A stretch of DNA of 64,000 bases, taken from NCBI GenBank assembly GCA_050738795.1, contig JBOIAD010000113.1:131-64130 (forward strand), read 5' to 3'. Source of the DNA: Steroidobacteraceae bacterium. GTDB lineage: Bacteria > Pseudomonadota > Gammaproteobacteria > Steroidobacterales > Steroidobacteraceae. Shown piece after piece: positions 21,439 to 58,487 of the stretch. The translations under genes were made by a program, and so were the position numbers. The notes under the pieces were generated by a model that did no database searches, was not told where the DNA came from, and worked only from the letters and a program-made list of their open reading frames with translations. Each line of letters begins with the position of its first letter. Within the stretch, counting starts at the first letter, position 1.

Positions 21439-24400
21439 CTACAGGGTCGTGTCGGGCCAGCCGTGGAGCGCAAACGCCGCCCAGTCATAGGAGGAGGAAG
21501 CGGTGGCCTGATCGAGCTGCGCCCTGCGCAGGGCGGCCGACGCCGGCAGACGGTCGAGCAGCAAATATCTGTAGAACTGCCGCATGAAGCTCGAGGTGCT
21601 CCGATCGTCGATGCGCCAGTAGCTTGCGATGACGGCAGCCGCGCCCGCCTGCAGGAAGGCTTGTGCCGGACCGAGTACACCTTCACCCGGGAGCAACCGG
21701 CCGCGCGACGTCTCGCACGCGCTGAGTACGACCAGGCTGGAATGCAACTTCAGTGCCAGAATATCCAGCAGCCCGAAAGCGGATGCCGGCCTGCCGGTGC
21801 CCTCTTCGGGTGTCAGTGCGAGCGCCGACAGGCGGGGGCGTTGAGCGTCCACCCGGGCGTGAGTTGCAATGTGCAGCAGATCAACATGTTCATCCGCCGC
21901 GCGGCGCAATGCGCCGGGTACGGCAGCGCACCCGAGAAGCGTCTCGACGCGGCCGGCCGGTCTCGATTGCCGCGCTAGCTGTGCAACCATCAGAACCTCG
22001 GCACGGCTGCCGGGCAGGCGCGGCAGGGCCTCGGTCCAATCGAAGGCCGCCCGCGTGACAGGCTTTGCGCTCGACTCTCCCGCGGCGTCCAGACACTCGT
22101 GGTGCCAGTCGGAAATCCTGAATACGGGGTCGCCGATCAGCTCGATCCGTGGCGCGCTGGCGCGCCCAGCGGAGGGTGTGTGCCCCTGCGTCAGAAACAG
22201 TGCGGACGGCATGATGGACGTTTCCGCATGTTGCAGAACCGTCTGGGCCGCGAAGTTGGAAGACCAGGGAAGTACATTGAATGGAATAGTGTGCAAGGCA
22301 TCGTCGGGCACGAAAATGATCCGTTTGCCGGACAACCTGCTGGTGAGGGGCCACAACGCGAGCCGCGCCAGGCGCTCGGCGGCGGAGCGAACCGTACTGG
22401 CAGGCGACTCGGGGTCCCGCAGCAGCTCGCGCAGCTCGCCGGCCGCGGCGGCGATTTCGCGCCGCCCGCCCAGTTGCACGAGTTGGGCGCTGCCGTTGCC
22501 GTCGATCACGAAAGCAAACATGTCCCGCGAGCCGGCGGCATACTCGACCAGCGTGGCGTCGAGTCGTCCGAGAGCCTGCTTGAGCTGGTTGCGGTCGAAT
22601 GGCTCGACCGTGCCGCGCTCCCGCCGCACTGCGCTGTCCAGCTCGGCGAGCAGGTCCTGATGCTCGGCGCCTGCATTCGCATTGGCGAGCTGAACCACCT
22701 CCCGCAACAACTGTCGATATCGCGCGGCCGGGGGTGCCTCGAGCGGCGACGAGGCATCTCGCTTCGTCTGAGTGATTGCATACCGCAAGCTGCGCGCGCG
22801 TCCCCGCTCCGAAGTCTCGAACGCCAACCACGTCATATCGGGATCAGCTCCTGCTTGCGAGGCATACAGGTCCATCAGCTCCGCGAAGACGGTGTACTGC
22901 GTAGCCAGATAGGTGGCGCGCTTCTCGCCATCGAGCTGGTCGATCGGGACCGCTTCGATCAGATCGGCGGCGGTCTGCAGTGTGCGCGCGGCTTGCGCCG
23001 GCAGCCGTGATGCGCGGTAACCCGCGGAGATGAGCCGCAACGAAGTAACGGTCTGATCGATGTCGCCCCGCGCAACGCTGGTTTCCAGCGCCCGGGTGGA
23101 GTCCTGCAGCGTGCGGGCGCCGTTGCCGGCAAGCAGTGCCGATTTCACGACGCCGAGTTGAGCTGCGCCGCGGTGCTCGTAGGTCGCCGGAAGCGCCGCG
23201 TTGTCGGCGATGCGTAGCGCCCGCCTGAAGCTCGTTTGCGCTCCTTCGGCATCGTTACGTTCCAGAAGCATCGTGCCGCGTGCGTTTGCGAGACGAACCT
23301 GTGTGCGCGAATCCGCGGCGTAAGGGCCGGCGGCATCGAGACAGTGCTGCGCCCGGGCGTCGTCGCCTTCCATCATGAGGAGGTCGCCTAGCGAGAGCAG
23401 CGCATCGAAGACGACGATCCTGTTGGCAGCCGCAAGCGTACGCGCATCGAGAGAATGCCTGCACAACTGCGTGTGTCCGGTATCCGCAGGGGCGGAGAAG
23501 CGATCTGTCGGCGGCGGCCCGGAGGACGCGGACGAGTCAGTTCCGGCAGGGAGGGCCGCGCCGGCCGATGCCAGCAACTCGGGACAGTCGAGCGATGCTG
23601 CGTGCTGCAGGTCATTCTCCGCGTCGGCGAGAGTGCCGATCTGCACCAGGAGACTGCCAGAGCGCGCAAGCGTGCGGCGTACGCCGGGGCAATCTCCGAG
23701 CCCTGCGTACTCGCGCATTGCCGCCGCGTGCGAGTGTGCGCTGCTGCTGAAGAGACCCACTACGCCCTGCAGGCGCCCGAGGTTGTTCCAGATGTCCGCG
23801 GCCACTTTCGGGTCGAGCTCCGGCCGCAGAGCACGCAAGGCGTCCCCATACGCTGACAATGCAAATGCGTAGTTCTTGTCGGCCTCCGCAAGCAGCGCAA
23901 GATTCTGACTTGCGATCGCGTAGCAATCCCAGTCCTGCAGGGCGCGGCAGCTTCGTGCGGCCTGCGCGAAGAGCTCGCGCGCCTTTGCAGGGGCGTCGAG
24001 CATGTACTCGAGAAACCCGGTCATGATGTCGAGTCGCGGCAGCTCGCGCGCACCAGCGCCGCTCGCGGCGTCGTATTTGCGCGCTACGAATAGCCGTTCG
24101 CGCACCCTCGGTGCGACAACATGGACATCGCCGCCTGGCATATCGAGCAGCGCTTTGCCCTGCAGACCGGCGAGCAGGCCGGTAAAGATCGGATCGACCG
24201 CGGTAAAGATCGGATCGGCCTGTTCGCCGTAGTCGGCAAGAGCCTGTCCCGCGAGCGCATAGCTGTCGCGTTTGCGATCGAATCGGCGATACGCCAACTC
24301 TGCCATGGCGTGACGTGCCTCGGCCGACGCCCGCCGCAGACGCTGTCGATCAAATCCGCGAGCGGCGCTGAGGTATTCATCAAAAGCCGTGTTCCAGTCC

Positions 24401-30857: not shown

Positions 30858-31415
30858 TCAACGGGGTTTGTTCGTGCGGGGCAACATCCGCCTCAGTACG
30901 TCATCCTTCAATACGAAGTGATGCTTCATGGCGGCCGCAACGTGCAGGAAAACGACGGCGTAGAGTGTCGCCGCCAGCGCGTGGTGAGTCTCTCTCATGG
31001 TGTCGTAGAGCCACTTGCTCTTGGGAACGAAATCCGGCAGCTGAAAGAAATTGAACCAGCTGACCGGGAACCCGCGCGCCGAGGTCATCATCCACCCGGT
31101 CAGGGGCATCGCGAACAGCAGCAAGTACAGTGCCGCATGCGTGGAGCGTGCCAGTGCACGCTCGTAGGGCCTGAGCGTGGTCGGCAACGGCGGTGACGGA
31201 TTGGCCCCGCGCCATGCGAGGCGGATCACCGCGAGACCCAGGATGGTGATGCCCACCGACTTATGGCGCGCGAACATCGCCAGCTTCTTCACTCCAATGG
31301 GTAGATCCTCGGCGATATTGGCAAGGATCACTTGCGTGATGATCAATGCGACGATCAGCCAGTGCAGAAACTGGGAGACCGCGCCCCAGCGGGCAGTAGT
31401 GTTTCGAACGGACAT
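30858..31415 (-). CDS. Cytochrome b561 family protein
   Basis: Four-TM protein with conserved His ligands: QFLHWLIVALI...FARHKSVGITILGL...STHAALYLLLFAMPLTGW...THHALAATLYAVVFLHVAAA. ATG 31415; an upstream TTG at 31433 is possible. Confidence 0.88.
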   Translation of the reverse strand: MSVRNTTARWGAVSQFLHWLIVALIITQVILANIAEDLPIGVKKLAMFARHKSVGITILGLAVIRLAWRGANPSPPLPTTLRPYERALARSTHAALYLLLFAMPLTGWMMTSARGFPVSWFNFFQLPDFVPKSKWLYDTMRETHHALAATLYAVVFLHVAAAMKHHFVLKDDVLRRMLPRTNKPR

Positions 31416-44259: not shown

Positions 44260-44298
44260 CCCGCGCGGCCATTGACCCGCGCGGCCATTGACGCGCGC
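44251..44298. repeat. 16-bp tandem repeat x3 (GGCCATTGACCCGCGC)
   Basis: Units at 44251, 44267 and 44283; the third has one mismatch. The first unit contains the TGA stop of the radical SAM gene. The array fills the convergent gap up to the MTAP stop at 44301. Confidence 0.9.
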
Positions 44299-51165: not shown

Positions 51166-51454
51166 CCTGCGAAAAGACCTGGCAGAGCACGGCCGAGCTT
51201 ACGCGCGAACGTGGTCCTCCGCCGCAACGGCTCGACGTCTTGCCGACCTGTACGGGGGCTGCGGCCCGCTCTGGGATCGCAGACTGTGGCGGCCTGAGCA
51301 GGAGCGCCGCCCGTCGCCGGACAATCGTCGCACAGGCGCGACAGCGCTGGAAACGGCGGCGTTCTGCGCTACACTTTGAGGACGTCTGCCGGGCAGGAAG
51401 GCACGCCTTTGAGCCCGCCGGGTGCACAATCTGGGGGGGTGTTTGGAGCAGGGC

Positions 51455-52864
51455 ATGGGAGCCAAGCGCGCGCTGATCGTCGACGATTCGAAGTCCGCGC
51501 GCCTGTTTCTCGCGCGGATCCTCGAAAAGTACGAGATCGACGTCGACAGCGCGGAGAATGCCGAATCCGCGATCGAGTATCTGGCCAGCCACCGGCCGGA
51601 TGTGATTTTCATGGACCACCTCATGCCGGGCATGGACGGCTTCCAGGCGGTCCAGGCCATCAAGAACAATCCACTCACCGCGACGATTCCCATCCTGATG
51701 TACACCTCCCAGGAGGGCGAACTGTACTTGGGGCAGGCCCGCGCGCTGGGCGCCGTCGGTGTTCTGCCCAAGCAGATCAAGCCCACCGACGTATCCAAGG
51801 TCCTGTATCAGCTGCACCTGCTGACCGAGCGGCGCAGCTCGTACCAGTCGAGCTTCCGGGCTCTGAACATGCCCTCGCCGGAGGGTGCGTCGGCCGATCA
51901 CAGCGCTGCGAACGACTCGGGTGTGGTACCCAAGGTGCTCACCGAGACGAGCTTGCGAGAGCAGTTCGCCGAGCTGCGCAGGGCTCTCGTCGCGGGTGTG
52001 GACACCCAGACGGACCGCATTACCGCCGAAGTCCGCGCACTGCTGCTCGAGGCGCTGCCTCCGCCCCCGCTGGACGGAATTCCGACACCACCATCGCGTC
52101 CGCTTCCGCAGTGGGGATGGCTTGTTGCCAGTGTCGCGCTCGCGATCGCGCTGGGCAGCACAGCGTTGTGGTGGCAGCAGGTGAAGCAAATGCGGATGTT
52201 GACGGCGGACGTGGCGCAACTCCGTCATGATGTGGTGGAACACGCCGCCTCTGCGGGAATTGCTGCCCCGGGTCCCGCGTCCGGTCGTGCGCCCCTGACT
52301 ATGGGCTCGGCCGGCGGAGCGGATGCAGGGGCCCACTCCGCCGTGCCCGCCGCGTCAGCCGACTTACCCGGGACCGCGGCGGCGCAACCAGCTCCCAGAG
52401 CACTGCCGACGGATACCAGGCCGATGATCGTGCCGGTACCCTATGCCGCGGATGCCCTCGGCGGCCCCCGACTGGAGCTCATTCGCCAGCTCCTGGATCG
52501 GCTGGTCAGGGAAAGCCGCAGCGGCGTCGTGGATATCAAGTCGTTCGCGGGCCGCTTCTGTCTCATGGGCAATGTAACGGATGGGTTTTCCCTTGCACCG
52601 GACGAGAGTCCGTTCGCGAAGTGCGACGTCGTCGGGAATCCGTCGGACGATGCCCTGTCCGCCGCACAACGCATTCCGCTTCCGTTCGCGAATCTCGCCG
52701 GCGCAGTCCGGAATGCTTCGCGCGGGACGCTCGATGTACAGCCCTCGACCGGGGATGCGACCGCAACCGTGGCACCCTATCCACAGGTCGTCCCCGATCT
52801 CACCGCCGGCGCATGGAATCGGGCGGCCGGCGCCAATAACCGGATCGAGATCCGGGTGCGATAA
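51455..52864 (+). CDS. CheY-like receiver-TM helix-periplasmic C-terminal domain protein
   Basis: SD GGAG, then ATG 51455. REC: ALIVDDSKSARLFL...VIFMDHLMPGMDG...PILMYTS...LPKQ. TM helix: WGWLVASVALAIALGSTALWW. The ~190-aa C-terminal domain ends NNRIEIRVR. Confidence 0.85.
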   Translation: MGAKRALIVDDSKSARLFLARILEKYEIDVDSAENAESAIEYLASHRPDVIFMDHLMPGMDGFQAVQAIKNNPLTATIPILMYTSQEGELYLGQARALGAVGVLPKQIKPTDVSKVLYQLHLLTERRSSYQSSFRALNMPSPEGASADHSAANDSGVVPKVLTETSLREQFAELRRALVAGVDTQTDRITAEVRALLLEALPPPPLDGIPTPPSRPLPQWGWLVASVALAIALGSTALWWQQVKQMRMLTADVAQLRHDVVEHAASAGIAAPGPASGRAPLTMGSAGGADAGAHSAVPAASADLPGTAAAQPAPRALPTDTRPMIVPVPYAADALGGPRLELIRQLLDRLVRESRSGVVDIKSFAGRFCLMGNVTDGFSLAPDESPFAKCDVVGNPSDDALSAAQRIPLPFANLAGAVRNASRGTLDVQPSTGDATATVAPYPQVVPDLTAGAWNRAAGANNRIEIRVR

Positions 52865-53978: not shown

Positions 53979-54007
53979 CCTCATCCGGCGCGGACGCCCG
54001 CGTGTGC

Positions 54008-54421
54008 TCAGCGCTGCTCCGGCTTCGCGGCCGCGGCGCGCTTTTCTTCGAACCTGAGGATCGGCTGGCCGCTGGTCACCGTGACTTCACCGTCTACCAC
54101 CGCGCCCTTGGCGATGGCGATGGTGCGCGCAACGATGTCGGCGTGAATGACCGCGGTGGCGCCCACCTCGAGCTTCTCTTCGACAACCAACTTGCCGCGG
54201 ATGTGTCCGGCGATCACGGCCGCCTGCGCGTGGATCTCGCCTTCCCACTGCGATCGGGCCGCCATGCTCAGCGCGCCGCCCACGCGCCCATCGCCCCGGA
54301 TGACGCCGCACACCACGAGCGGGCCGCCGGTCTCCAGATCTCCGGTGAGGCGGCTCCCCTCCGCAACGAAAGTCGGCGAGCTTCCGAGCTGATCGATCAG
54401 TCTGCGCTTCGGTAGGCTCAT
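54008..54421 (-). CDS. Bactofilin (polymer-forming cytoskeletal protein)
   Basis: Beta-helical repeat pattern: LTGDLETGGPLVVCGVIRGDGRV...IHAQAAVIAGHIRGKLVVEEKLEVGATAVIHADIVARTIAIAKGAVVDGEVTV. Confidence 0.85.
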   Translation of the reverse strand: MSLPKRRLIDQLGSSPTFVAEGSRLTGDLETGGPLVVCGVIRGDGRVGGALSMAARSQWEGEIHAQAAVIAGHIRGKLVVEEKLEVGATAVIHADIVARTIAIAKGAVVDGEVTVTSGQPILRFEEKRAAAAKPEQR

Positions 54422-54603
54422 CGTGACTCCAGTGGCAAGCCAGGCAGGTCGGGTGATCGGCGCCGCAGCTCCCGCGCGGCGAACTGCTGCTCCCGCGAGG
54501 CGCCCGGCAGCTCGTGCCGCGAGCCGCAGGCACGGGCCGCGGAAACCTGATTTCCCGATGGTGGCCTAGAATAGCTGGCGGCCGCAGTGAGAAGGTGCTG
54601 ACG

Positions 54604-55380
54604 ATGATCACAATCCGGGCAGGAAAAGTTGCGATGGGCGTCTGGCTACTGATGCTGGCGGCGGGGTGCAGCCGCGAGCAGCAGGACTGGCGCTCGGCCG
54701 AAGCGGCCGACACCATGGAGAGCTATGGTCAATTCATCGAGCGCCACCCCGAAAGTGAGCTCGCTACACAAGCCCGGCTTCGCGTGACGCAGCTCGGAGA
54801 GGATCAGGACTGGCAGCAGGCCGGAAGTGCGGATACCGCAGAGGCCTACAGGCAGTTTCTCGCCCAGCACCCCAGCGGGAAGTGGGCGCAGGAGGCGCGG
54901 ATTCGCATCGAGAATTTTTCGCTGGGGGCGCAGCCTGAGGGTGCGATTTCTGCTGCACCGGCAGCCCAACCAGCACAACCTCGAACGGGGCCGGATCAAG
55001 GGACGGCACTCATCGCGCCCGGCGACGCCGCGGTGCCCGGTGCCGCCGTGCCCGGAGACGCCGCCGTGCAGCCGCAGCCGGAGCGCACCGCAGCAGCTCG
55101 CGCTTCGACGCCGGTCGCGGGGTCAAGTAGCGTCGCGGGCGCTGCCGTTCAGCTCGGAGCGTTCAGCAGCGAAGCGGGCGCGAACAACGAATGGCGGGTC
55201 CTCACGGGGCGTTTCGGTCCTGAGTTGCAAGGGCTCTCCGCACAGGTCGCCGTGGCGGATACGCCCTCAGGACGCCTTTATCGGCTTCAGGCGCGCGTCG
55301 CTGATGAACCCCATGCGCGCGCGCTCTGCGATGAGCTCAAGAAGCACGCGCAGGGTTGCATCGCGGTGTTGCGGCACTGA
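54604..55380 (+). CDS. SPOR-domain lipoprotein
   Basis: Lipobox: LLMLAAGC. Two DW..A......AY..F...HP repeats. C-terminal SPOR: AVQLGAFSSEAGANNEW...YRLQARVADEPHARALCDEL. ATG 54604. Confidence 0.8.
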   Translation: MITIRAGKVAMGVWLLMLAAGCSREQQDWRSAEAADTMESYGQFIERHPESELATQARLRVTQLGEDQDWQQAGSADTAEAYRQFLAQHPSGKWAQEARIRIENFSLGAQPEGAISAAPAAQPAQPRTGPDQGTALIAPGDAAVPGAAVPGDAAVQPQPERTAAARASTPVAGSSSVAGAAVQLGAFSSEAGANNEWRVLTGRFGPELQGLSAQVAVADTPSGRLYRLQARVADEPHARALCDELKKHAQGCIAVLRH

Positions 55381-55480
55381 CCAACCCCGCGGCGTTCGGT
55401 CCAAAGCTGACAATTCTGGTCACGATGAACGGGTTCTCAGGAGCACGCTAAGCTCTTGTTTTAAATGAGACCGGGGAGCC

Positions 55481-55495
55481 TGGCACAAGGTTTGC
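55481..55495 (+). promoter_or_regulatory. Sigma54 (-24/-12) promoter
   Basis: TGGCACaaggtTTGCT matches the TGGCAC-N5-TTGCW consensus exactly in sequence and spacing. It is the only such match I found on either strand. An AT-rich tract (TTGTTTTAAATGA, 55456-55468) lies just upstream. Confidence 0.7.
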
Positions 55496-55506
55496 TTTAG
55501 CTAGGC

Positions 55507-55593
55507 GGCAAGGCTTGAATCGCGAACAACTTCCCCGGTGTTCGCCTCCTCGGCGCCGCGATGCGACTTCCCCCGCTCGCGGCGCTTTTTTAT
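55507..55593 (+). ncRNA. Candidate sigma54-dependent small RNA (~85 nt), or a terminated leader
   Basis: Predicted TSS is ~12 nt after the -12 GC. Hairpin 1: GCGAACA-ACTTCCCCGG-TGTTCGC (55522-55545). Linker: CCTCCTCG. Hairpin 2 plus U-tract at 55553-55593. No plausible ORF. The next ATG of a real gene is at 55744. Confidence 0.45.
55553..55593 (+). terminator. Rho-independent terminator
   Basis: GCGCCGCGA-(15-nt loop TGCGACTTCCCCCGC)-TCGCGGCGC, followed by TTTTTTAT. Confidence 0.65.
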
Positions 55594-55743
55594 CGCCGGC
55601 GGTGGAGGCCCTTGCAGCGGCCCAGCCCCATACCCATTGTCTGCCGTACCTGGCCGCGGATCCGTACAAAAGTACGCGCACCCCGCTGTCTATCCCTTCC
55701 GGTCAGGGCCCTTATTCCACGTCCCGCCGTTAGACTTCCAGCC

Positions 55744-57081
55744 ATGAACAAGAGCTTCGGATCGCATTTCCTCGCCGCGGGCTCACCGGCTGCGGTTGCC
55801 GTGACGCCGGCACTTGCAGTGCCCGGACGCGAGCTGGTGCGCAGCACGACGCTTGCAAATGGACTGAAGATCATCGTTTGGCCGGTCCACGCGATTCCCA
55901 ACATCGCGCTCTACAACTGGGTTCGCGCTGGCAGCCGCAACGAGGCGCCTGGAATCACCGGCCTGGCGCATTTCTTCGAGCACATGATGTTCAACGGCAC
56001 CACGCGCCGCCAGCCTGGCGAGTTCGATCGGCTCATGGAAGCGCAGGGTGGTGCCAACAACGCCTTCACGAGCGATGACGTAACGGTCTACCAGGACTGG
56101 TTCCCCAGCAATGCGCTCGAGCTCGTGTTCGATCTGGAATCCGATCGTGTCGCCCACCTCGCGTTCGTCCCTGAAGTCATCGAAAGAGAGCGTGGCGTCG
56201 TCTATTCCGAGCGCCGCCTGCACGTGGAAGACAACAACCAGGGTTTGCTGAGTGAGCAGGTTCAGGCCAGCGCATTCGTCGCACACCCGTACCGATTTCC
56301 GACGATCGGCTGGCCGTCCGACATCCAATCGTGGCGTATCGAGGACCTGCAGCGGTTCTTCAGAACCTTCTATGCACCCAACAATCTGACGCTCGTGCTC
56401 GCCGGCGACCTGGTGCCGGAGCCGATGTTCGAGCTCGCGAGCAGGTACTTCGAAGCCATCCCGCGACAGCAGCCGCCAGATGACGTCCGCACGCGCGAGC
56501 CGGAGCAACTCGGTGAGCGCCGTATCGTCCTGCGGCGCAAGGCGCAAACTCCGCTTCTGCAATACGCGTACAAGGCGCCAGCGGCCTCGGACTCGCGCGG
56601 GCCGGCGGTGAGCCTCCTGTTATCGATCCTCGTCGACGGCGATTCGTCGCGTCTGCACCGCAGGCTGGTGGAGGAGCGGCAGGTCGCGATCGAGGTCAGC
56701 GGCCATTGGCAGGAGGGCTTCGATCCCGGGCTGCTGTGGTTGTATCTGACACTGCCTGAAGGGTCGAATCCCGATGCAGTGCAGCCAGTGATCGATGACG
56801 AGCTGCAGAGCGTGGCGGCGCGCGGTGTGACGGACGCCGAGCTGGTGCGGGCAAAGAACATTGCCGCGGCCGGTTTCTGGAAGAAGCTCGCCACCCTGGA
56901 CGGCAAGGCGCAGTTGCTCGGCGAGTACGAAGTGTTTCACGGCGACTGGCGCAGGCTCTTCGATGCACCCGCGCAATTCGACAAGGTGACGCGGTCGCAG
57001 GTGCAGGCGATGGCGCGCGAAATTCTCGATGTACGCCGGCGCACGACCGGCGTGCTGATTCCCGAGGACGAGAAGGCGTGA
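55744..57081 (+). CDS. M16 family (pitrilysin-like) zinc peptidase, catalytic subunit
   Basis: ATG 55744. Signal peptide. Inverted zincin motif: HFFEHMMFNGT. Also GGANNAFTSDDVTVY. The track ORF is over-extended to 55561. Confidence 0.9.
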   Translation: MNKSFGSHFLAAGSPAAVAVTPALAVPGRELVRSTTLANGLKIIVWPVHAIPNIALYNWVRAGSRNEAPGITGLAHFFEHMMFNGTTRRQPGEFDRLMEAQGGANNAFTSDDVTVYQDWFPSNALELVFDLESDRVAHLAFVPEVIERERGVVYSERRLHVEDNNQGLLSEQVQASAFVAHPYRFPTIGWPSDIQSWRIEDLQRFFRTFYAPNNLTLVLAGDLVPEPMFELASRYFEAIPRQQPPDDVRTREPEQLGERRIVLRRKAQTPLLQYAYKAPAASDSRGPAVSLLLSILVDGDSSRLHRRLVEERQVAIEVSGHWQEGFDPGLLWLYLTLPEGSNPDAVQPVIDDELQSVAARGVTDAELVRAKNIAAAGFWKKLATLDGKAQLLGEYEVFHGDWRRLFDAPAQFDKVTRSQVQAMAREILDVRRRTTGVLIPEDEKA

Positions 57082-58487
57082 GCACCGCGCGCGGTGCGGG
57101 CGTGAGGGTTCCGGTCCATGAGCGCATCGTGCTCGGGAACGGGCTGACTCTCATCGTCATGCCGCGCGACGATGTCCCATTGATTGCGTTCAACGCCGTT
57201 CTGCGGGGCGGCGAGTCCGCCAGTGCCGCGGACAAATCCGGCGTCGCATCCCTCGTCGCGGGGCTGCTGGAGAAAGGCGCCGGCGCACGGGATGCGTTTG
57301 CTTTTGTCGACGCGGTCGAAGGTGTGGGCGGCACCTTCAATGCGCGCGCGGGCCCCGAGTCGATCACGCTCGGTGGACAGTTCCTGGCGCGCGATCAGCA
57401 CCTGATGCTCGAGCTGCTGGCGGATGCGCTCCTGCGGCCGCGGTTCGCGATCGAGGAGTTTGCAAGCCTGCGGGCACGCCAGATCGAGCTGATCAAGGCC
57501 GCGAAGGATTCCGACCCGTCCGGGCTGCTGGGCACCTATGGCCGCGCATTCCTGTTCCGCGGTCATCCCTACGGCCGCCCGGTCATTGGCAGCGAAACGT
57601 CCCTGGCCAAGGTCACTCACGCCGACGTCCTGGAATATCACCATGCATGCTTCGGTGCCGACCAGCTCACCCTCGTGGTGGCCGGCGACATCGATCCCGA
57701 CTGGCTCAAGCGAGCGGTGTACCGGGCGTTTGCCGAATGGCCGGCTGCGGCGCGGCCCGCGCCGCGGCTGCAGCAACCGGCGCGGGCGCGACAGCGGCGG
57801 GTGTTGCTGGTCGATTCGCCCGGCTCGGCCCAGACGCACTTCTGGATCGGCAACGTCGGTGTGGACCGGCACTATTCCGAGCGCGCCGCGCTCGATCTGG
57901 CCAACACACTCTACGGCGGGCGCTTCACGTCCATGCTCAACACCGAGCTGCGCGTGAAGTCCGGGCTCTCGTATGGCGCGCGTTCCGGATTTACACGTGG
58001 CAGCGTGGCTGGAGAATTCGCGATGCGCTCGTTCGCGCAGACCCGGGATGCCGGCAAAGCGCTCGATCTTGCGCTGCAGACCCTCGAGCGGCTGAAGCGC
58101 ACCGTCGTGAGCAGCGAGATGTTGGATTCGGCGCGCGCCTACGTACTGGGCCAGTACCCGCTCGGCTTCGAGACGGCCGCGGACTGGGCCGCCGCTCTGG
58201 GCGAGCTCGAGTTGTACGGCCTGGGTGCCGGATACATCGAGGACTACGGCTCGCAGCTCCAGGACGTGACGCTGGCACAGGTCCACGCCGTCATCGAGAA
58301 GGCTTTTCCATCGCCCGAGGCAGTGGCCGTCGTTCTGATCGGTGATGCCGCTCATCTGCGCGCGCAGGTCGGCGGATATGGGCCCGTCACGCACATGCCG
58401 CTCACGCAGCCGGACTTCGATGCCGGGTTCAACCGCTTGCCTTCGCGGGCCGCCGTCCCCACGTCAACGGCAAATTCGAGGCTGTAA
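57078..58487 (+). CDS. M16 family peptidase, non-catalytic partner subunit
   Basis: Start overlaps the upstream stop. M16 fold similarity but no HxxEH motif. Confidence 0.85.
   Translation: MSTARGAGVRVPVHERIVLGNGLTLIVMPRDDVPLIAFNAVLRGGESASAADKSGVASLVAGLLEKGAGARDAFAFVDAVEGVGGTFNARAGPESITLGGQFLARDQHLMLELLADALLRPRFAIEEFASLRARQIELIKAAKDSDPSGLLGTYGRAFLFRGHPYGRPVIGSETSLAKVTHADVLEYHHACFGADQLTLVVAGDIDPDWLKRAVYRAFAEWPAAARPAPRLQQPARARQRRVLLVDSPGSAQTHFWIGNVGVDRHYSERAALDLANTLYGGRFTSMLNTELRVKSGLSYGARSGFTRGSVAGEFAMRSFAQTRDAGKALDLALQTLERLKRTVVSSEMLDSARAYVLGQYPLGFETAADWAAALGELELYGLGAGYIEDYGSQLQDVTLAQVHAVIEKAFPSPEAVAVVLIGDAAHLRAQVGGYGPVTHMPLTQPDFDAGFNRLPSRAAVPTSTANSRL

Follow-up and report, generated by a model that had tools for sequence, protein, structure and literature searches.

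Background

Small RNAs (sRNAs) that depend on sigma54 and on an enhancer-binding protein are well documented, and include Qrr1-5 (LuxO), GlmY/GlmZ (GlrR/QseF together with IHF), NrsZ (NtrC), CrcZ/CrcY (CbrB), NcS25 and GlnZ (PMC3045617, PMC10162802, PMC10117139, PMC9731577). The Qrr, GlmY/GlmZ, NrsZ, CrcZ, NcS25 and GlnZ RNAs have in common a -24/-12 promoter with upstream activator sites ahead of a short, terminator-ended RNA, to which GlmY/GlmZ add an IHF site. Here we describe a predicted locus of this kind in a genome of the Steroidobacteraceae. The window, meaning the whole 64-kb stretch of contig JBOIAD010000113.1 that was analysed, was read at 55200-55900, where a predicted two-hairpin RNA of ~85 nt lies between a gene for a SPOR-domain protein and two genes for M16 peptidases. 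An initial annotation of this stretch had proposed a sigma54-dependent sRNA at the same place.

Other sRNAs are known for the runs of C in their hairpin loops. In Firmicutes, RsaE/RoxS pair through such loops with G-rich, Shine-Dalgarno-proximal mRNA sequences. The 6C sRNA of Actinobacteria is reported to bind mRNAs through its C-rich loops (PMC6486639). In Xanthomonadaceae, the sX13 RNA, which is Hfq-independent and always located next to polA, carries 4C and 5C loop motifs that pair with G-rich motifs in the 5' untranslated regions (UTRs) of mRNAs (PMC3771888); no primary transcription start has been mapped for it, and it is apparently a processed transcript (PMC3300014).

A literature search for Steroidobacter sRNAs returned nothing relevant. 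To our knowledge the Steroidobacteraceae, an abundant and almost entirely uncultured soil group, have no described riboregulators. The RNA presented here represents a previously uncatalogued family of soil Steroidobacteraceae, although one of a familiar kind. In the reading that we favour, the locus would be a stand-alone gene for a trans-acting sRNA of ~85 nt, belonging to a family conserved in a subclade of uncultured Steroidobacteraceae. An enhancer-binding protein on an array of GTCA/TGAC half-sites ~100 bp upstream of the start would activate the sigma54 promoter TGGCAC-N5-TTGCT, with the A/T-rich element between array and promoter possibly assisting by DNA bending. The transcript would consist of a short leader, a first hairpin displaying ACUUCCCCGG, a pyrimidine-rich linker, a terminator hairpin displaying CUUCCCCC and a U-tail, and its two C-rich loops would most likely pair with G-rich (GGGGAAG-like) sites at or near the Shine-Dalgarno sequences of several mRNAs, repressing translation. 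We put the probability of the combined statement, namely a sigma54-promoted, terminated sRNA acting by loop pairing, at roughly 0.7. Taken by its parts, a sigma54-promoted and independently terminated small RNA gene appears highly probable, and action through loop pairing with G-rich mRNA sites would have slightly better than even odds.

The locus and its predicted RNA

The features of the proposed unit and of its control region are as follows.

55398-55423, plus strand: candidate upstream activator site GGTCC-aaagc-TGAC-aattctg-GTCAC, with three GTCA-type half-sites, recognised by comparative conservation
55449-55466, plus strand: A/T-rich motif TAAGCTCTTGTTTTAAAT between activator site and promoter, conserved in position; candidate IHF or DNA-bending site
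55481-55496, plus strand: predicted sigma54 -24/-12 promoter TGGCAC-aaggt-TTGCT (TGGCACAAGGTTTGCT), an exact consensus match
55507-55591, plus strand: predicted sRNA transcript of ~85 nt, its start placed from sigma54 geometry and its 3' end in the U-tract
55522-55545, plus strand: hairpin 1, with GCGAACA (55522-55528), loop ACTTCCCCGG (55529-55538) and TGTTCGC (55539-55545); proposed seed loop 1 is (A)ACUUCCCCGG
55546-55552, plus strand: linker CTCCTCG, single-stranded and pyrimidine-rich
55553-55591, plus strand: hairpin 2, the predicted intrinsic terminator, with GCGCCGCGA (55553-55561) and TCGCGGCGC (55577-55585), then T6 (55586-55591); it holds proposed seed loop 2

The minimum free energy structure of the predicted RNA consists of the two hairpins at -36.4 kcal/mol (z-score -2.4). 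In the RNAfold structure, three inner pairs (GCG/CGC) extend hairpin 2 and leave the loop ACUUCCCC, and the extended hairpin reads GCGCCGCGA-U-GCG / ACUUCCCC / CGC-UCGCGGCGC, followed by U6. Once these inner pairs are added, CUUCCCC is exposed by both loops. The sequence confirmed each feature, including the promoter match, the hairpins, the T-run and the shared CUUCCCC loops, at the coordinates given by the initial annotation. Additionally, no credible open reading frame (ORF) was found inside the element, either in the window or in its short-form relatives, in agreement with what had been stated for the window. No match to the intergenic region came up in a BLAST search of plasmids.

At most one mismatch being allowed, TGGCAC-N5-TTGCW has three matches in the window against 1.8 expected, and two of them are perfect. 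The second perfect match (TGGCACTGAAGTTGCA) is within a gene for a CHAT-domain protein and the one-mismatch match is within another ORF (21743-21758 and 31120-31135, both on the minus strand); given these positions inside ORFs, neither was retained as a promoter and both are probably chance occurrences. Given that sigma54 consensus matches recur in the window and that the fold z-score reaches only -2.4, the window sequence alone is weak evidence that does not stand clearly above chance, and it is the comparative data that settle the case.

Conservation among relatives

Relatives were collected through the M16 protein and through hairpin 1. The M16-protein relatives L001-L016 are metagenome-assembled genomes of Steroidobacteraceae with 61-77% identity. 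Ten genome loci have a sigma54 consensus upstream of the M16 gene, followed by C-rich hairpins; six loci carry exactly the hairpin 1 of the window, and L006 and L012 have a 2-nt insertion in its loop. Across the seven synteny-derived genome loci that possess hairpin 1, this insertion is the sole difference. The metagenome scan used hairpin 1 only as its query (GAACAAC-N0-2-TTCCCCGGTGTTC), with promoter and terminator left out, and returned at least 120 contigs. Together with the window and six genome loci these make at least 127 instances, with 119 distinct upstream regions and 110 distinct core sequences; the latter form alignment A1. All counts given below over 127, 119 and 110, as well as those of short and long forms, refer to the matches listed (at least 120 contigs). 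The hairpins are therefore found in genome and metagenome loci alike, which bears out the conservation in relatives on which the initial annotation had made its proposal depend.

When the intergenic regions of the ten closest relatives were aligned in full with MAFFT, discrete conserved islands stood out from otherwise diverged DNA. These are the 3' end of the SPOR gene, the upstream activator site, the A/T motif TAAG..TTGTTTT, the -24/-12 promoter, hairpin 1, and hairpin 2 with its T-run, and conservation is lost immediately 3' of that run. Such a pattern is best read as the footprint left by a transcription unit complete in itself. A covariance model derived from A1 scored 95.3 bits at the locus and found a single copy in the window. 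The same model detected the distant loci L015 (Povalibacter sp.), L018 and L023 at 30-32 bits (E ~1e-5) and nothing else credible in 614 kb; a match in L032 (21 bits) was rejected because promoter and terminator are missing there. The three distant loci keep the promoter, the palindrome of the activator site and a terminator with the (U)CUUCCCC loop, on a terminator stem of different sequence (GACGCCGCCAG / CUGGCGGCGUU).

The distribution of the element within the Steroidobacteraceae is patchy, since it is absent from the SPOR-M16 junction of L009 (2830-2880), L014 (2890-2910), L016 (2880-2890) and L019 (2890-2900), where the stop of the SPOR gene abuts or overlaps the start of the M16 gene. 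The element appears to have been either inserted into this junction or precisely lost from it.

Stems, loops and linker

Hairpin 2 changes on both sides at 10 of its 12 pairs in A1, with 95.6% of cells paired; its covariation score was reached by none of 500 shuffles, and all slid registers collapse. RNAalifold recovered both hairpins unguided. Covariation had been proposed as a check on both stems, and it holds for hairpin 2 and not for hairpin 1, a point taken up below. Hairpin 1 is without variation in A1, a constancy that the search pattern partly imposes on the metagenome set; the two outer base pairs, which lie outside that pattern, are invariant as well (110 of 110).

The loops are kept along with the stems. 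The terminator loop is CUUCCCCC or UUUCCCCC in ~90% of the sequences among the matches listed, and 59 of the 60 short-form RNAs have at least two C4 runs. A clade with the promoter variant TGGTAC/TGGTAT (L095, L105, L119, L132, L144, L160, L162 and L197) has lost the C-run of the terminator loop in six of its eight members, CCCC being kept in L132 and L162, and all eight have an extra 5' hairpin, AAGGUU-UUCCCCU-AACCUU. Several medium-length forms bear further hairpins with UUCCCC or UACCCC loops. These patterns suggest that the C-rich loops are a selected feature, two per RNA even where their positions shift, and that the sequence of the linker is not. The linker is replaced elsewhere in A1 by TGCCTGA, TACGGT, TTCTT and others that are mostly C/U-rich. 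The CCUCCUC of the linker, which had been put forward as an anti-Shine-Dalgarno-like seed, did not hold up in this role: its sequence is not conserved and only its pyrimidine-rich character is kept.

The constancy of hairpin 1 could also be read in another way, with the RNA serving as a protein-binding or decoy RNA in which hairpin 1 is recognised by an RNA-binding protein or a ribonuclease and is not a pairing seed. Its stem and loop are invariant where the neighbouring protein is only 62-79% identical, a constraint beyond structural need, and two similar loops per RNA are typical of decoys. The invariance is, however, partly an artefact of the search pattern, and the RNA contains none of the known protein-binding motifs (GGA loops as bound by CsrA/RsmA are absent). 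Base-pairing roles of C-rich loops are, moreover, well documented, as for sX13 and 6C (PMC3771888; PMC6486639). We consider the chance of a protein-binding or decoy function to be slim.

Promoter and upstream control region

In 124 of the 127 instances, TGG[CT]A[CT]-N5-TTGC is located 16-254 nt upstream of hairpin 1, although the promoter was no part of the query. Of the three exceptions, two are truncated at contig ends, where too little upstream DNA is left, and the third is a spurious match that lacks a terminator. The GG, the GC and their spacing are invariant; the N5 spacer and the surrounding bases vary freely. The -24/-12 match reported by the initial annotation is thus present in the window and conserved at this rate among relatives. 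From the spacing we infer that transcription starts ~11 nt after the -12 element (+/-2 nt); the shortest relatives, in which TTGCT is followed by the hairpin after 14 nt, would have a 4-nt leader.

A search for enhancer-binding-protein sites upstream, which had been recommended for this locus, revealed the palindrome TGAC-N7-GTCA in 116 of the 119 distinct upstream regions, starting 72-80 bp upstream of TGGCAC; variants with N6 or N8 spacing were found in none of the 119. In the window the palindrome core occupies 55408-55422, 73 bp upstream of TGGCAC and ~100 bp upstream of the predicted start. The extended consensus of the site, cGTCc.aa.cTGACaat...cGTCAC, comprises three half-sites. As in the known sigma54-dependent sRNAs, a canonical -24 GG/-12 GC spacing lies directly upstream of the RNA, and the palindrome at 72-80 bp with its third half-site corresponds to the activator sites found ~80-150 bp from the promoter in that class. 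TGAC-N7-GTCA is not known to match the activator sites of LuxO, GlrR (TGTC-N10-GACA), NtrC or CbrB. A literature search for the motif returned nothing relevant. The window contains five copies of TGAC-N7-GTCA, where shuffles predict 0.87; the other four are at 44289, 47877, 49943 and 57145 on the plus strand.

One candidate source of the activator was the conserved gene for a response regulator at 51422-52864, which lies 3-5 kb upstream. It was rejected, as its product has a receiver domain only and no sigma54-interaction domain.

The A/T motif TAAG..TTGTTTT (consensus AAgt..tTg.TTt) stands at a fixed distance from the promoter. An IHF-like tract had been suspected at this place, and its position is indeed conserved, but in most lineages, as overall, the motif fits the IHF consensus no better than shuffled sequence does, and the fit is perfect only in the TGGTAY clade (AATCAATGATTTA). 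IHF binding at the motif may occur and is conjecture at this stage. The motif is overlapped at 55438-55458 (plus strand) by a weak hairpin resembling a terminator, CAGGAGC...GCTCTTG with TTTTAAAT after it, which could also serve to terminate the SPOR gene.

The counts in the window (three matches against 1.8 expected with one mismatch, two of them inside ORFs) and the fold z-score of only -2.4 would by themselves allow a chance meeting of a sigma54-like hexamer pair with the terminator of the SPOR gene. This explanation is already refuted by the comparative data, in which the promoter and the palindrome recur as described, the terminator covaries and the footprint is clear, and its probability is practically nil. 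Promoter association, palindrome, covariation and footprint instead support the short, two-hairpin, terminator-ended non-coding transcript from a sigma54 promoter that was originally predicted.

Independence from the flanking genes

The genes that flank the element are the following.

54514-55380, plus strand: gene for a SPOR-domain protein (Pfam SPOR), the upstream neighbour and the most stable syntenic anchor
55744-57081 and 57078-58487, plus strand: two M16 peptidase genes (Pfam M16), downstream neighbours outside the unit

From the SPOR stop (55380) to the M16 ATG (55744) the gap is 363 nt, as originally annotated. The upstream order is constant, with the response regulator (51422-52864), an alpha/beta-hydrolase, a 137-aa hypothetical protein (54002-54415), the SPOR gene and the element, and a SPOR homolog was found upstream in 101 loci among the matches listed. 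The downstream side is looser. In most loci the nearer M16 gene (M16a) is 170-500 nt from the element, and in ~12 the distance is 2.5-3.7 kb. In L094, L170 and L181 there is no M16a downstream, and the closest gene recognised on that side is DnaJ-like.

These data bear on whether the element is a 5' leader or attenuator of the M16 operon, with the sigma54 promoter serving the M16 genes and the terminator hairpin acting as a regulated attenuator. The element has the same orientation as M16a and in the window lies 152 nt upstream, the two are close in most loci, and no sigma70-like promoter for M16 was detected in the gap. Against such a role stand the other DNA that intervenes before M16a in the ~12 loci and the absence of M16 from the three just named, as well as the end of conservation at the T-run, beyond which the downstream spacer is unalignable. 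Obligatory linkage and mutually exclusive terminator and anti-terminator folds, which mark leaders and attenuators, are not what was found: linkage is broken in ~15 loci, and there is no conserved anti-terminator pairing, since each hairpin is independent of the other and the linker varies. In L009, L014, L016 and L019, moreover, SPOR abuts M16a without such a leader. Because the M16 genes are displaced or absent in some relatives, we do not regard the element as an M16 leader, and consider that explanation highly improbable. The properties of a generic terminator-ended trans-acting sRNA are present, in the form of a non-coding unit, a GC-rich hairpin with a U-tract and conservation confined to the unit.

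Length variants and a 60-aa ORF

By the spacing between promoter and hairpin 1 the forms divide into three classes, 16-63 nt (RNAs of ~72-122 nt), 76-130 nt (with extra hairpins) and 202-254 nt. In the window the spacing is 27 nt, which corresponds to the ~85-nt RNA. A G-rich motif, GAGGAGUG / GGAGUGCUGGAGGC, recurs in the variable 5' part of the medium-length forms L100, L123, L133, L135, L140, L157, L168 and L177; it might pair with the C-rich loops of the same RNA and so mask the seed.

The long forms have a 60-aa ORF (MARSTVTLILPHAQGVASMRPAMAGMLVKRRRGGSVMFAPIDARLARAQLAAIHAVKVSR; MARSTVTLILP...IDARLARAQL...KVSR) between promoter and hairpin 1. There are 38 such loci, comprising L006:2608-2790 (plus strand), L012, L010 and ~35 metagenome loci (e.g., L092, L108 and L127), and a divergent 67-aa version occurs in L010, L081, L129 and L185. 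The GTGATG start lies 12-15 nt after TTGCT, and the long-form mRNA would therefore be essentially leaderless. A clear coding signature was seen in 27 full-length copies of the 60-aa ORF, with 23, 15 and 45 variable sites by codon position and 59% synonymous codon differences in frame against 19% and 5% out of frame. Pfam and NCBIfam gave no match for either the 60-aa or the 67-aa ORF, and the 180 homologous clusters all bear the name 'hypothetical protein'. The window has no trace of the 60-aa ORF.

The long forms raise the question of whether the element of the window is the remnant of a small-protein gene. The ancestor would then have been a sigma54-driven leaderless mRNA for the 60-aa protein, with the hairpins as its 3' UTR and terminator, and the lineage of the window would have lost the ORF and kept a leftover with little or no function of its own. 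The 38 long-form loci and the coding signature of their ORF favour this origin. Short ORF-less forms are, however, the majority (60 of 119), spanning M16a identities of ~60-87%, and they keep the upstream site, the promoter, hairpin 1 and the covarying terminator intact, which is unexpected of a decaying remnant. The most distant loci, L015, L018 and L023, are likewise without the ORF, and the common denominator of the family is the hairpins and not the ORF. A decayed small-protein gene is thus quite improbable as an account of the locus. The long forms themselves may be dual-function RNAs or sRNAs derived from a 3' UTR, and GlnZ likewise is the 3' end of a sigma54-dependent mRNA.

A broader proposal, which we advance tentatively and hold to be unlikely, treats the locus as a modular sigma54-controlled RNA scaffold. 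Its invariant 3' module (hairpin 1 and the C-rich terminator) would be preceded by nothing, by extra C-rich hairpins or by the leaderless 60-aa ORF, all under the control of an undescribed enhancer-binding protein that recognises TGAC-N7-GTCA; in this scheme hairpin 1 could also serve as a protein recognition element. Were the scaffold proposal true, it would provide a natural series from pure sRNA to dual-function (coding and regulatory) RNA at one orthologous site. In any event, the length variants at one orthologous site amount to a natural experiment on the interconversion of sRNAs and small-protein mRNAs.

Mode of action and targets

Several observations weigh against the preferred reading of a stand-alone, sigma54-dependent sRNA that acts by loop pairing. 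In about one third of the relatives the 60-aa ORF comes first behind the same promoter and the hairpins are the 3' end of an mRNA; because of these long forms, the locus is not a pure sRNA everywhere. Covariation is absent from hairpin 1 in A1, and in L015, L018 and L023 this hairpin is remodelled, with its apical loop replaced by one without CCCC. No enhancer-binding protein (GAFTGA motif) is encoded anywhere in the 64-kb window. Finally, no target was identified when the window was scanned for GGGG-type motifs near start codons and when the loops were compared by RNAduplex with 55 candidate translation-initiation regions. The only suggestive match was a G7 run before the response-regulator gene at 51422-52864, which was rejected as a target since it is not conserved in orthologs.

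Relation to known RNA families

At the gathering threshold, Rfam gave no match in the window or in 40 loci, which supports the earlier statement that the family is distinct from Qrr and NrsZ. The covariance models of Qrr, GlmY/GlmZ, NrsZ and CrcZ were unlisted even at E up to 10 for the region and at E up to 5 for 15 relatives. The promoter architecture would place the RNA in the functional class of sigma54-dependent sRNAs, with no homology to its known members. In the E-value mode, sub-threshold matches to sX13, ncS54, alpha-r14 and ErsA appeared and were rejected as indications of family membership. The matches to alpha-r14 (RF02344; 21-32 bits) and ErsA/Pseudomon-1 (RF01719; 30.7 bits) in some relatives are caused by C/U-rich loops followed by a terminator; they are far below the gathering scores of 58.8 and 50, respectively, and the taxa and promoters differ.

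The resemblance to sX13 (RF02232), which is weak, sub-threshold and architectural, had not been considered by the initial annotation. It is the best or near-best in Rfam, with alpha-r14 and ErsA slightly higher in single relatives, and amounts to 18.7 bits (E=0.23) in the window and 21.8-26.8 bits in six relatives, against a gathering score of 50. Both RNAs come from related gammaproteobacterial lineages and consist of consecutive hairpins with CCCC/CCCCC loops, the last being the terminator. On the other hand, sX13 is 115 nt long with three stem-loops and is always downstream of polA, whereas the RNA described here has SPOR/M16 flanks (~100 loci among the matches listed). In the window the hairpins number two, with 4C and 5C loops, and some relatives have a third C-rich one. 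No sigma54 promoter is reported for sX13 (PMC3300014), whereas here the sigma54 promoter and activator site are the most conserved feature. The RNA is thus no member of the sX13 family by score, synteny or promoter.

The 6C RNA and RsaE/RoxS also have two or more hairpins with C-run loops. They belong to unrelated phyla, have sigma-A type promoters and gave no Rfam match here, and the likeness is one of design and not of homology. By analogy with these RNAs, the RNA described here probably works like sX13, 6C or RsaE.

The family adds an sRNA that is absent from Rfam 15 and another case in which C-rich hairpin loops recur as a seed design in high-GC bacteria. With sigma54-dependent sRNAs and C-rich-loop sRNAs both well known, it does not change a paradigm. 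Its unusually complete and readable control region, with activator site, A/T element and -24/-12 promoter, offers a handle on the cognate enhancer-binding protein and its signal.

The upstream response-regulator gene

Two further observations concern the response-regulator gene at 51422-52864. Its true start is the ATG that gives MGAKRALIVDD, and the receiver domain is followed by ~350 aa without a recognised domain. A conserved, promoter-like sequence, GTTCTGCGCTACACTTT, is present ~40-50 nt upstream of this gene, both in the window (51340-51440) and in orthologs (e.g., L093, L138 and L180).

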